DNA of 64,000 nucleotides from NCBI RefSeq assembly GCF_057098645.1, contig NZ_CM169472.1; one strand, 5' to 3'. This document shows, one piece after another, positions 52,492 to 58,105 of the stretch. Position 1 is the first letter of the stretch, and each line of letters starts with the position of its first letter. The position numbers and the translations under genes are program-made. Under the pieces are notes generated by a model. That model ran no database searches and was not told the origin of the DNA. It saw nothing but the letters and a program-made list of their open reading frames with translations.

Positions 52492-53627
52492 CAGAACACC
52501 CTTTTACCCTGACGCCAGACGTGGTCGATATGAATGTGATTGCCCTTGCGATGCGCCAGCACCAGGTCCGCGCGATTGCCCTCGCCAATCACCCCGCGAT
52601 CCTGGAGATTAAGCGCTTGCGCCGGATTTTTAGTCACCAGCCTCACCGCCTGCGGCAGCGTAAAGCGGTTGCTCTGGTCATCGGCCACGCGGAACGCCGC
52701 ATCCAGCAGGCTGGCGGGGTAGTAGTCGGAAGAGAGGATATCCAGCAGGCCAAGCTGCGCCAGTTCACTGGCCGCCACGTTGCCGGAGTGCGAACCGCCG
52801 CGCACGATATTCGGCGCGCCCATCAGCACGTTCATGCCATGCTTGCGCGAGGCTTGTGCCGCTTCGAACGTGGTGGGAAATTCGGCGATCACGCTGCCAA
52901 GCTGGTGGGATTCGGCAACGTGGGCGTGCGTGGCGTCATCGTGGCTGGCGAGGGCAATTTGTCTTGCGCGGCACAGGGCGGCGATAGTTTCGCGATTCGG
53001 CTGCGACCAGCGTGCGGCGAGCGCCAGTTGCTCTTCTTCGTACTGCTGCATCTGCGCATCGGTGAGCGAGTATTTGCCCTGATAATACTCGCGATACTTC
53101 TCGCGGTTGGCGAACTGGCGCTGGCCCGGCGAGTGATCCATCAGCGACACCAGCGTCACCGGCTCGCGCTGCACCAGTTTTTCAAACAGCGGCAGCGTAG
53201 TGTGATGCGGCAGTTCGCAGCGCAGATGCAGGCGGTGCTCGGCGCGGTTGACGCCGCGTTTCTGCGTCTCTTCGATGGCGTTGATCATCTTCTCCAGATT
53301 TTCCAGCCGATCGCCGCCGTCGCGCACGTCGCCAATTGCTACGGCATCCAGTACGGTGGTGATGCCGCTCGCCACCATCAGCGCGTCGTGGCTGCTCATC
53401 GCCGAGTGGGCGGGCCAGTCCACTTTCGGGCGCGGGGTGAAGAATTTATCCAGGTTATCGGTATGCAGCTCAATCAGCCCCGGCAGCAGCCAGCCGCCTT
53501 CGCCGTCCATCGCCTCCGGCAGGCGGCTCTGGCTTTCGGCAAAGGCGCGGATTTCGCCGTCCTGCACCTCCAGCGAACCGTGTACCACCTCGTTTTCCAG
53601 CACCAGTTTGACGTTATTGATAATCAT
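52491..53627 (-). CDS. phnM: RPnTP diphosphatase (amidohydrolase fold)
   Basis: 378 aa; metal-binding LHTDNLDK region. Confidence 0.9.
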
Positions 53628-54304
53628 GCAGAGGCTCCCATTGGGTGCAGGCGGTCGGCGACGTCATTGCGTACGGCTTCGTCATGGAAGATGCCGACGA
53701 TGGCCGCGCCGCGGGCTTTGGCTTCGCGGATCAGTTCGACTACGGCGGCGCTGTTTTTGGCGTCCAGCGAGGCGGTAGGTTCGTCGAGCAGCAGAATCGG
53801 GTAGTCGACGATAAAGCCGCGGGCGATGTTGACGCGCTGCTGTTCGCCGCCGGAGAAGGTCGATGGCGCCAGATGCCACAGGCGTTCCGGCACGTTCAGG
53901 CGGGTGAGCAGACGCGCGGCTTTAGCGGCGCAGGCTTCACGCGGAACGCCGGTATCGAGCAGCGGCTGCATCACCACTTCCAGCGCCGAAATACGCGGGA
54001 TGACGCGCAGAAACTGGCTCACCCAGCCAACGGTGGTTTTGCGGATTTCCACCACTTTGCGCGCTGGCGCGGTGACCAGATCGACCCATTCGTCACCGTG
54101 TTTGATCTGGATTTGCCCTTCGTCGGGCAGATAGTTGGCGTACAGCGAGCGTAGCAGGGTTGATTTTCCGCTGCCGGAATGGCCGTGGAGCACCACGCAT
54201 TCGCCCGCGTTGACGGTGAGCGAGGCGCGGTTGAGGACGGGCAGGCGCACGCCGTTTTGCTGGTGCAGGATGAAGGTTTTACTGACGTTTTGTACGTTAA
54301 TCAT
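53624..54304 (-). CDS. phnL: C-P lyase system ATP-binding protein PhnL
   Basis: 226 aa from [11 protein letters not shown]; Walker [11 protein letters not shown]; ORF-track entry has an upstream extension. Confidence 0.9.
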
Positions 54305-54323
54305 TTTTCGCCTCGTGGTTCGG

Positions 54324-54408
54324 GTGTCGGATGCGACGCTGACGCGTCTTATCCGACCTACGGGGAGCGCATTTGTAGGCCGGATAAGGCGTTTACGCCG
54401 CATCCGGC
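54324..54408. repeat. REP elements between phnL and phnK
   Basis: gtcggatgcgacgctgacgcgtcttatccgacctac and gtaggccggataaggcgtttacgccgcatccggca. Confidence 0.7.
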
Positions 54409-55173: not shown

Positions 55174-56015
55174 TGGTTTTTTGCCTCGCTCTGTTGGCGG
55201 CAATAATCGGTATCGGAGCAGACAAACATGCGGTTTCCGGCGTCATCCAGCACCACTTCATCAAGATAGCTGTGGGTCGATCCGCAGATGGCGCATGGTT
55301 CATCCCACTGCTGAACGGTGAACGGGTGATCGTCGAAATCGAGGCTTTCCACGCGGGTAAACGGCGGCACCGCATAGATGCGCTTCTCGCGCCCCGCGCC
55401 GAACAGTTGCAGGGCGGGCATCATGTCCATTTTCGGGTTATCGAATTTCGGGATCGGCGACGGGTCCATTACGTAGCGCCCGTTCACCTTCACCGGATAG
55501 GCGTAGGTGGTGGCGATATGACCGAAGCGGGCGATATCTTCATACAGCTTCACCTGCATCACGCCGTACTCCTCCAGCGCGTGCATGGTGCGGGTTTCCG
55601 TTTCGCGCGGCTCGATAAAGCGCAGCGGTTCGGGGATCGGCACCTGGAAAATAATGATCTGATCTTCCGTCAGCGGCGTTTCGGGGATGCGGTGGCGGGT
55701 CTGGATAAGCGTCGCATCGTCCGTGCGCTCGGTGGTGTTCACCCCGGTCACGCGCTTAAAGAAGTTGCGAATCGATACGGCGTTGGTGGTGTCATCCGCG
55801 CCCTGGTCAATCACCTTCAACACGTCGCTTTCGCCAATCACGCTGGCGGTGAGTTGTATGCCACCGGTTCCCCAGCCGTATGGCATCGGCATCTCGCGCC
55901 CGCCAAACGGCACCTGATAACCGGGGATCGCCACCGCTTTTAAGATGGCGCGGCGGATCATGCGTTTGGTCTGCTCGTCGAGGTAGGCAAAGTTGTAGCC
56001 GCTCAGATTAGCCAT
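55170..56015 (-). CDS. phnJ: C-P lyase catalytic subunit (radical SAM-like, Fe-S)
   Basis: 281 aa from MANLSGYNFAYLDEQTKRMIRRA...; C-terminal cysteine cluster CAICGSTHSYLDEVVLDDAGNRMFVCSDTDYC. Confidence 0.9.
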   Translation of the reverse strand: MANLSGYNFAYLDEQTKRMIRRAILKAVAIPGYQVPFGGREMPMPYGWGTGGIQLTASVIGESDVLKVIDQGADDTTNAVSIRNFFKRVTGVNTTERTDDATLIQTRHRIPETPLTEDQIIIFQVPIPEPLRFIEPRETETRTMHALEEYGVMQVKLYEDIARFGHIATTYAYPVKVNGRYVMDPSPIPKFDNPKMDMMPALQLFGAGREKRIYAVPPFTRVESLDFDDHPFTVQQWDEPCAICGSTHSYLDEVVLDDAGNRMFVCSDTDYCRQQSEAKNQ

Positions 56016-57072
56016 GGTTCTGCTCCTGTTGCAGACGTTTGAGTAGCTCCAGTTCGGCCTGGAAATCGACGTAGTGCGGGAGTTTGAGGTGCGAGACAAA
56101 GCCTGCGGCTTCGACGTTGTCGGCATGCGCCAGCACGAACTCTTCATCCTGCGCCGGGCCTGTCGCGTGCTCGCCGTACTCCGGGGCCTGCAACGCACGA
56201 TCGACTAGCGCCATTGCCATCGCTTTGCGCTCGCTCATGCCGAACACCAGCCCGTAGCCGCGTGTAAAATGCGGTGGTTCATCCGGCGGATCGATAAAAC
56301 CGTTGACCATTTCACACTCGGTCATCAGCAGTTCGCCGACGTTTACCGCAAATCCCAGCTCTTCCGGCACAATCGACACGTCGATGTAACCACTGCGGAT
56401 TTCACCCGCGAACGGGTGATTGCGCCCGTAACCGCGTTGGGTGGAGTAGGCCAGCGCCAGCAAATAGCCTTCGTCGCCGCGCATCAACTGCTGCAAACGG
56501 GAAGAACGTGAGCAGGGGTAAACCGGCGGCGTGCGGGTGATGTCATCCGGCTGTGCGCCGCTATCCTCTTCAAACTTCGCCAGCCCCTGACGCGCAAGCA
56601 GGCTGAAAACGTGCGGCGACGGCTGTTGTTCGCTGTCGGCGGTGGTCAGCGTTGGCGCTTCGCCGTTTGCCAGCAGGGTGAAATCGAGCAGGCGATGGGT
56701 GTAGTCGTAGGTTGGGCCAAGCAGTTGGCCGCCGGGAATATCTTTATAAACAGCGGAGATACGCCGTTCGAGACGCATCCCGGTGGTGTCGAGCGGTTCG
56801 CTCACCGCCAGCTTCGCCAGCGTGGTGCGGTAGGCGCGCAGCAGAAAAATCGCTTCGACGTTATCGCCGCTGGCCTGTTTCAGCGCCAGCGCCGCCAGTT
56901 CGCGGTCGGCAATGCCGCCTTCGGTCATCACGCGATCTACCGCGAGGTTAAGCTGCTGTTCAATCTGGGCGACGCTCAGTTCGGGCAAATCGGTATCGCC
57001 CCGGCGTCGGCTCTCTTGCAGGGCGTGGGCGGCGTCGATCGCCTTTTCGCCCCCTTTTACGGCAACGTACAT
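56008..57072 (-). CDS. phnI: C-P lyase core complex subunit PhnI
   Basis: 354 aa from [16 protein letters not shown]... Confidence 0.9.
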   Translation of the reverse strand: MYVAVKGGEKAIDAAHALQESRRRGDTDLPELSVAQIEQQLNLAVDRVMTEGGIADRELAALALKQASGDNVEAIFLLRAYRTTLAKLAVSEPLDTTGMRLERRISAVYKDIPGGQLLGPTYDYTHRLLDFTLLANGEAPTLTTADSEQQPSPHVFSLLARQGLAKFEEDSGAQPDDITRTPPVYPCSRSSRLQQLMRGDEGYLLALAYSTQRGYGRNHPFAGEIRSGYIDVSIVPEELGFAVNVGELLMTECEMVNGFIDPPDEPPHFTRGYGLVFGMSERKAMAMALVDRALQAPEYGEHATGPAQDEEFVLAHADNVEAAGFVSHLKLPHYVDFQAELELLKRLQQEQNHG

Positions 57073-57656
57073 CAGCACACCTCCACATGAGTGGTTCGCG
57101 GAATAGCCAGCAGGCGTTCGCCGCAGGTCAGGATCAGGTCGATGCCGAGCGGGAACGGGTGCGGGCGCTCGGTGAGTTCGTGCAGAATGCTCTCCGGCAG
57201 CTGCGGAGCGATCATTCGTTCTTCGGCAATACCCGCGCCGGTGAGGCGCAGCATGCGCCCGCCGCTCAGGCTGGCAACCTGTAAAATCAGCGTTGCGCCC
57301 GCTTCCGGCGCAACGGCGGTGCCGGTGGAAAGGGCGTTAAGCTGTTCGCTGGAAATCGCCTCATCCGTTACCGCGAAGGTCGCCTGTTCCGGCTGGCTGA
57401 CCAGCGGCGCGTTGGTATGAAAACGCAGGCTCTGGTTGACGATATCGTTACTTAATGGCGCGGAAAGCCACACCGGCGTGTCGTTATCGGCCAGCGTCAG
57501 CAGCACGCTGGTGGTGGCGATATTCAGCGGCTGCCAGCCGCGTTTGAGCTGATGCAGGGCGACAATCACGCCCGGCTCGCTCATGGCCTTTAACAGGCGA
57601 CGAAAACTGTGCTGGGCATCCTGCACAGGAAGCATAAAAGCGGTTTCCAGGGTCAT
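57072..57656 (-). CDS. phnH: C-P lyase core complex subunit PhnH
   Basis: 194-aa ORF, overlapping neighbours. Confidence 0.9.
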
Positions 57657-58105
57657 GCGTTATCTCCGCGAACCATCGTAAAGAAATCGACCCGGCTGGT
57701 GTTCACTTCGGCCTGGCGTGCGGCAATGCGTGCCATACGGTCAGCGTCCAGCGGGGCAATAAGGGTTTCTGATAAGTTTTGAAAATGGCGGGTTTGCTGC
57801 ATCAGCGCGTCAATCAGCGCGCAGCGTTCGGCGTGCTGTTTGTCGCGCCCCAGCACCCAGCTGTAGCCGAGCGTGCCGTCAGCCAGGCGTACGGCGGCGC
57901 GGGTGAGCGTGGCGTCGCCAGCAAAAAAGCGTTCGCCAGTGCCGCCCATCCGCGCCTGAATCTGTACCAGGCCGGTTTCAGCGGCGCGGATCACCTCATA
58001 GTCGGCGGTGATGTTCAGCGCGTTCAGGCGGGCTGCCAGTTCAGCCGGTTGGCTGTGCGCCAGTACGGACATCCAGTGCTGGCGGGTCGCGGTATCTGCG
58101 TGCAT
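57653..58105 (-). CDS. phnG: C-P lyase core complex subunit PhnG
   Basis: 150-aa ORF. Confidence 0.9.

Follow-up and report, generated by a model that had tools for sequence, protein, structure and literature searches.

Overlapping stop and start codons chain the phn C-P lyase genes of Escherichia coli and may couple their translation

We have found here that seven of the 13 junctions in the phn operon, which carries the C-P lyase genes, are short overlaps between the end of one gene and the beginning of the next. The operon, phnCDEFGHIJKLMNOP, lies in a 64,000-nucleotide stretch of Escherichia coli DNA (contig NZ_CM169472.1 of assembly GCF_057098645.1; the whole stretch is called the window below), where its 14 co-directional genes stand in the canonical order on the minus strand, from the phnC start at 61566 to the phnP stop at 50753. 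The interpretation that we favour, and to which we would give a probability of roughly 65%, is that on the Pho-induced phn mRNA these overlaps couple the translation of the downstream gene to that of the upstream gene, mainly by termination-reinitiation, and so keep subunit synthesis roughly proportional. Coupling is also the standard reading of such overlaps, and it is probably the correct one for phn.

Over the 6-kb stretch around the overlaps the sequence agrees at 100% identity with the E. coli O145:H28 str. RM12761 chromosome; 5,425 of 5,426 complete E. coli genomes match this same phn stretch. Gene coordinates were taken from the RefSeq annotation of the identical RM12761 record and verified against the window sequence; all 14 annotated coding sequences translate cleanly and start with ATG. 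According to the literature, all 14 genes are carried on one transcript under phosphate starvation. We considered and rejected a splitting of the operon by internal promoters or terminators, as sites resembling these are no more frequent within it than in shuffled sequence.

Junction distances are given here from the upstream stop to the downstream start, negative values denoting overlap. By this measure the operon is made up of two tightly chained blocks, phnF-G-H-I-J-K and phnL-M-N-O-P, together with loosely spaced transporter genes. phnC (60778-61566) is followed after 24 nt by phnD (59737-60753), which is separated from phnE (58852-59631) by 105 nt containing a bacterial interspersed mosaic element (BIME), and phnE is followed after 20 nt by phnF (58106-58831). 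phnF and phnG (57653-58105) abut with a distance of 0 nt (TGAATG, 58103-58108). phnG then overlaps phnH (57072-57656) by 4 nt in the sequence ATGA (57653-57656), phnH and phnI (56008-57072) share the single base 57072 within TGATG (57070-57074, distance -1), phnI overlaps phnJ (55170-56015) by 8 nt (ATGGCTAA, 56008-56015), and phnJ overlaps phnK (54415-55173) by 4 nt, again in ATGA (55170-55173). Beyond a 110-nt spacer (54305-54414), phnL (53624-54304) overlaps phnM (52491-53627) by 4 nt in a third ATGA (53624-53627), phnM and phnN (51934-52491) share base 52491 within TGATG (52489-52493, distance -1), and phnN overlaps phnO (51513-51947) by 14 nt (ATGCCTGCTTGTGA, 51934-51947). The last junction, between phnO and phnP (50753-51511), has a distance of +1 nt (TAAcATG, 51509-51515). 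The seven overlaps thus comprise three of the -4 ATGA kind, two of the -1 TGATG kind, one of -8 and one of -14, and all except that between phnN and phnO fall into the spacing classes -4, -1 and -8.

The initial annotation of this DNA had described a chain of phn overlaps of 1-14 bp. This range is correct, and the six overlaps that were named (phnG/H, H/I, I/J, J/K, L/M and N/O) are all present in the sequence and in the RefSeq coordinates, although the 14-bp phnN/phnO overlap lies outside the interval to which the chain had been assigned. The chain itself needs amending, in that the phnM-phnN (-1), phnF-phnG (0) and phnO-phnP (+1) junctions had been left out and that it is broken between phnK and phnL. 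The worked example was wrong: what phnH and phnI have in common at their stop and start is a single base within TGATG, and ATGA is instead found at the phnG/H, J/K and L/M junctions.

Every one of the 14 phn starts has a Shine-Dalgarno (SD) core of at least 4 nt located 6-11 nt upstream. At the seven overlapped starts the core is 4-6 nt long, is spaced 6-10 nt from the start codon and lies within the preceding gene, so that the proposed inspection of the 3' ends of the upstream genes for sequences resembling ribosome-binding sites is positive at all seven. The cores are GGAG for phnH (57664-57667), GGAGGT for phnI (57079-57084), AGGAG for phnJ (56023-56027), GAGG for phnK (55184-55187), GGAG for phnM (53635-53638), a weak AAGG for phnN (52500-52503) and AAGGAG for phnO (51955-51960). 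Among the starts that overlap nothing, phnG has GGAG (58112-58115) and phnL has GAGG (54311-54314). For the seven overlapped starts the calculated duplex with the anti-SD tail of 16S rRNA lies between -5.5 and -10.6 kcal/mol, compared with a mean of -2.5 +/- 2.4 kcal/mol at the remaining 136 ATGs of the operon (Mann-Whitney P = 2e-5 for the seven, and 4e-8 for all 14 starts). The phn overlaps therefore share two features of coupled gene pairs, namely the -4/-1/-8 spacing (in six of seven) that reviews and surveys single out for coupling (Huber 2023 among them) and an SD inside the 3' end of the upstream gene. To this extent the overlaps carry the signature of coupling that had been read into them; an ATGA overlap is, however, no proof of coupling.

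These conclusions depend on the start codons being correctly placed. Recorded starts are predictions, and the RefSeq annotation pipeline (PGAP) has picked a downstream ATG for phnJ in Citrobacter; the overlaps could accordingly be annotation artefacts, with the true starts lying further downstream and the genes not overlapping at all. We regard this as extremely improbable. At none of the seven overlaps does an in-frame ATG, GTG or TTG occur in the interval that begins at the upstream stop and ends at the first downstream residue to align with orthologues, and so the overlaps are not removable by any other choice of start. The conserved residues begin at positions 1-3. PhnI and PhnJ match chains in the PDB (4XB6, 7Z15-7Z19) over their whole length, from residue 1 to the last, and PhnL matches from residue 1 over 225 of 226 residues. 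The N-terminal amino group of PhnI has been modelled as a zinc ligand in complex produced from the native operon DNA, and active PhnO has been made from the annotated MPACELR start. The alternative start for phnI, an in-frame GTG further upstream at 57078, is too near the SD core and has an anti-SD duplex of -5.2 kcal/mol, compared with -10.6 kcal/mol for the annotated start.

The overlaps had also been held responsible for the over-extended N-termini in a mechanically generated list of open reading frames (ORFs). Comparing this list with the RefSeq annotation, we find that the ORFs of phnI (+2 codons), phnJ (+61) and phnK (+10) do extend into the upstream gene. However, phnL (+38), phnE (+21) and phnF (+3) are extended though they overlap nothing, whilst phnH, phnM, phnN and phnO overlap their neighbours yet are not extended. 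The over-extension arises because the longest-ORF rule, which takes the first start after a stop, acts on sequence of 60% G+C in which stop codons are few.

The junctions are well conserved in close relatives. The phn operon of E. coli K-12 MG1655 (b4092-b4106) has the same 14 genes in the same order and on the same strand, with 96.3% nucleotide identity over the operon, a few synonymous differences near the junctions, and the same distance at ten of ten junctions from phnE-phnF to phnO-phnP, including the 110-nt phnK-phnL BIME. The annotated phnD-phnE distance differs, since phnE is a pseudogene (phnE1) in K-12; in the present strain the gene (58852-59631) is intact and encodes 259 aa. The ten distances are likewise unchanged in a ~95%-identical E. 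coli bloodstream isolate, and in both strains the SD cores and the start and stop codons at the seven overlap junctions are unchanged. Citrobacter retains junctions of 0, -4, -1, -4, -4 and -14, with a phnM-phnN distance of +2, and its phnJ has a GTG in place of the ATG, shifting the overlap with phnI to -11.

The phnJ junction of Citrobacter freundii (NZ_CP151862.1; positions 5992-6049 of locus L015) illustrates how such an overlap is annotated. The RefSeq start assigned by PGAP is an internal ATG 46 nt past the phnI stop, so that residues aligning with the conserved N-terminus of PhnJ are lost; the sole upstream start is the GTG that overlaps phnI by 11 nt and has a strong SD (-10.3 kcal/mol). 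The start of this gene has probably been mis-called owing to the overlap.

We extended the comparison to 13 further phn loci from a plasmid collection, in which the genes were mapped by tblastn. Together with the present locus these give 14 loci, which are phylogenetically non-independent and whose starts are predictions. Overlaps at phnI-phnJ and phnJ-phnK occur in alpha-, beta- and gamma-proteobacteria, a Firmicute, Thermus and two haloarchaea. Across the 14 loci, 51 of 56 phnG-H, H-I, I-J and J-K junctions have a distance of +1 nt or less, compared with two of 20 junctions among the phnC, phnD and phnE transporter genes (Fisher P = 4e-11); counting strict overlaps only, the figures are 44/56 and 2/20 (P = 8e-8). 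In the operons of Paracoccus, Variovorax, Sinorhizobium, Thermus and the haloarchaea, as in E. coli, phnG-H-I-J-K overlap or abut, phnL ends in ATGA and the transporter genes are spaced. These operons differ from that of E. coli in the gene order after phnL and in a phnK-phnL distance of -4 to +33 with no inserted repetitive extragenic palindrome (REP), and Thermus has longer overlaps (-13, -20 and -35). On the Mesorhizobium japonicum plasmid pMLa (positions 6861-7677 of locus L012), the phnK homologue aligns to residues 4-187 only and is absent from the gene table; phnK may be disrupted there, or this may be a gap in the PLSDB annotation.

In the mechanism that we favour, a ribosome finishing one phn cistron would sit on or beside the next start codon and its SD, and translation of the downstream cistron would thereby be coupled to that of the upstream one. 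This would most likely proceed by termination-reinitiation, with ordinary de novo initiation at exposed SDs in addition. Under such coupling the subunits of PhnG2H2I2J2(K,L) would be made in rough proportion to one another. The relay would run through phnF-G-H-I-J-K and through phnL-M-N-O-P, and after the BIME hairpin phnL would have to start from its own SD. PhnG, PhnH, PhnI, PhnJ, PhnK and PhnL co-purify and have been solved as one heteromeric complex expressed from native phnGHIJKLMNOP DNA. In this respect the phn operon resembles the trp operon, in which genes for the subunits of a single enzyme complex likewise overlap by short distances. Coupling at the short stop/start overlaps of trpE/trpD and trpB/trpA was reportedly shown genetically by Oppenheim and Yanofsky in 1980.

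More direct precedents come from native E. coli ATGA pairs, of which four of the five tested are strictly coupled despite their SDs (Huber 2019, PMC6728339). These pairs (hyfHI, astDB, ydbH/ynbE as well as menDH) have, as in phn, a -4 ATGA overlap with the SD in the upstream gene. They differ from phn, where coupling is read from the sequence, in that theirs was tested with premature-stop and SD mutants, and phn has -1, -8 and -14 junctions besides those of -4. Across E. coli, short overlaps are 4.5-fold enriched for heteromeric complexes, and coupling drops steeply with distance (Huber 2023). Genetic data on the operon itself leave the question of coupling unsettled: a phnO deletion-kan allele is polar on phnP and a TnphoA'-9 insertion is not.

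A number of observations weigh against coupling, and several of them would be expected under a different explanation, in which the overlaps are real but are neutral by-products of packing in a G+C-rich, TGA-rich operon and each cistron initiates independently at its own SD. We consider this alternative possible though rather unlikely. Each phn start does have its own SD, and in predicted structures the overlapped starts are relatively open: the energy needed to open positions -18 to +12 is 11.4 kcal/mol, against 15.4 kcal/mol for an operon background of 435 positions (P = 0.006), so that nothing forbids independent initiation. One of the five tested E. coli ATGA pairs, bioBF, initiates independently (Huber 2019, PMC6728339), and genome-wide profiling of ribosomes in cells depleted of the ribosome recycling factor argues that reinitiation is not the main route in E. 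coli (Saito 2020). The composition of the operon could also produce such junctions readily. Its G+C content is 60.3% (50753-61566) against 52.1% in the rest of the window, the third-position G+C of the phn genes is 0.71-0.82, and 11 of the 14 stops are TGA (P = 2e-4 against an assumed TGA usage of 29%); an ATG followed by A then readily gives ATGA. The ATGA ending of phnL is kept whatever comes next in other species, be it phnM, phnN, an acetyltransferase gene or phnC, which shows that the motif arises easily, as a review likewise argues. In an AT-rich Photobacterium the phn junctions are mostly non-overlapping, and Vibrio relatives are reported to use methylphosphonate; an overlap is thus not required for function. 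The -14 spacing of phnN/phnO falls beyond the range over which synthetic constructs are reported in a review to be efficient. PhnM, PhnN and PhnO are not known complex partners, and stoichiometry therefore leaves their overlaps unexplained. Finally, a literature search, beyond whose reach lay the phn sequencing and genetics papers of the 1990s, found no statement or test of translational coupling in phn.

The frequency of overlaps points in both directions. Eight of the 13 phn junctions fall between -8 and +6 nt, compared with 707 of 2,987 (24%) same-strand pairs in E. coli as a whole (Huber 2023; binomial P = 0.004). Set against the rest of the window, however, the operon is not exceptional, with overlaps in 7/13 same-strand pairs against 9/27 (P = 0.30) and, amongst pairs closer than 60 nt, in 7/13 against 9/17 (P = 1.0). 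The nine overlaps outside phn are all of -4, -1 or -8. They are found between yjcH and actP (19252-19255), in the nrf operon between nrfB and nrfC (24162-24165), nrfC and nrfD (24830-24833), nrfE and nrfF (27517-27524) and nrfF and nrfG (27897-27900), in the mdt operon between mdtO and mdtP (34929-34932) and mdtN and mdtO (36980), and in a sugar-utilisation cluster between aldolase and kinase genes (42492-42495) and between ABC transporter ATPase and permease genes (46036-46039). The nrf, mdt, yjcH-actP and sugar ABC/aldolase operons thus show the same spacings and overlap frequency as phn but in shorter runs, the longest uninterrupted chains in the window being those of phn (F to K and L to P). 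An overlap frequency like that of neighbouring operons, which is itself a point in favour of neutral packing, implies that the phn pattern is ordinary E. coli operon architecture. The phn overlaps are, indeed, already known, being annotated and typical of the layout of tightly packed bacterial operons.

What neutral packing does not readily accommodate is the contrast within single operons. At the same G+C content, the transporter junctions measure 20-150 nt, against the tight phnG-H-I-J-K junctions found in six classes of Bacteria and Archaea (the P = 4e-11 given above), and the strict coupling of most tested E. coli ATGA pairs in spite of their SDs likewise argues against independent initiation as the whole explanation.

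Coupling could alternatively operate by unfolding, with mRNA structure hiding the downstream ribosome-binding site until the upstream ribosome melts it and a new ribosome initiates. A mechanism of this kind is established for other operons (review; Huber 2019, PMC6728339), and in the predicted fold of the phnK-phnL BIME part of the phnL SD is taken up by the three outermost base pairs of the stem. For none of the seven overlapped starts, though, does the predicted opening energy exceed the operon median (percentiles 0.09-0.44), and no sequestering hairpin is predicted over any of them. Since the overlapped starts are predicted to be more open than the 435 background positions, we rejected a hidden ribosome-binding site as the main mechanism and think it improbable that coupling works chiefly in this way.

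The sole break in the chain from phnF to phnP is the phnK-phnL spacer (54305-54414, 110 nt). It is a BIME of two inverted REP units, whose hairpin begins directly after the phnK TGA and has a predicted folding energy of -60.7 kcal/mol (z = -6.2). Among 5,425 E. coli genomes, the median number of places per genome with a copy of this element is 29. The phnD-phnE spacer (59632-59736, minus strand, 105 nt) is a second BIME, a REP pair beginning 3 nt past the phnD TAA. Both spacers consist of imperfect G+C-rich palindromes in an inverted pair between genes, as is characteristic of REP and BIME elements; dispersed copies were counted for phnK-phnL. REPs within ~15 nt of a stop codon can reportedly lower the expression of the upstream gene, a finding ascribed to Liang, Rudd and Deutscher in 2015. 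Both phn BIMEs lie within ~15 nt of the upstream stop.

The phnK-phnL junction appears to be a recurrent landing site for intergenic repeats. Some 89% of E. coli genomes carry the BIME there, and the other ~11% carry an unrelated 176-nt G+C-rich palindromic repeat (positions 452-627 of locus L016), which we take to be Box C-like. In the strains with this alternative repeat, the last ~20 nt of the spacer, containing the phnL SD region, are unchanged. The Citrobacter phnK-phnL spacer contains a REP.

In the present strain the phnL frame is open through the BIME as far back as a TTG overlapping the phnK stop (TTGA; ORF 53624..54418, 264 aa). We rejected an N-terminally extended PhnL on the grounds that the alternative-repeat strains have a TGA 16 codons upstream of the phnL ATG, that PhnL in the PDB is 226 aa long and that in other species the alignment to MINVQNVSK starts at residue 1. 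The stop closing the frame in the alternative-repeat strains indicates that the 264-aa frame is open by chance.

Because the phnK-phnL spacer is nearly all one hairpin, the phnK stop and the phnL SD would lie at the two feet of its stem, only a few nucleotides apart in space. From this modelled geometry it is conceivable, though in our view improbable, that a terminating ribosome may be handed across to the phnL start. If such bridging were to occur, a palindromic repeat could settle in a coupled junction and leave the coupling intact, and the ten junctions from phnF to phnP would form one relay.

Other features of the region bear less directly on the overlaps. Long ORFs lie on the plus strand antisense to phnM/phnL (52521-53804, 427 aa), phnE (58861-59775, 304 aa) and phnJ (55173-55943, 256 aa). 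A Pfam search with the three found no match, and we treat them as artefacts rather than genes; the high G+C at third positions in phn most probably gave rise to them. Beyond the operon, the interval 40790-50100 of the window, from yjcS to yjdP, contains a response regulator, a cluster of sugar kinase, aldolase, lyxose-isomerase and ABC-transporter genes, a hybrid histidine kinase and a GNAT pseudogene fragment. At the corresponding spot in K-12 rpiB adjoins yjdP, and in the bloodstream isolate AHB18 rpiB is found, followed by alsR, alsB and alsA.

The overlaps as such are of little consequence: every annotation of the operon shows them, and no class of operon junction is commoner among bacteria and archaea than theirs. 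They do, however, make phn a clean natural example, in which the genes G-H-I-J-K of a stoichiometric complex are tightly joined across phyla and the transporter genes of the same operon are not. This contrast is in keeping with overlaps being retained so that subunits are made in proportion. Overlapped junctions also give rise to errors of annotation, examples being the shortened phnJ of Citrobacter and the over-extended ORFs. For the re-engineering of phn by tags, deletions or refactoring, the 3' end of a gene has to be treated as holding the ribosome-binding site and start codon of the next.

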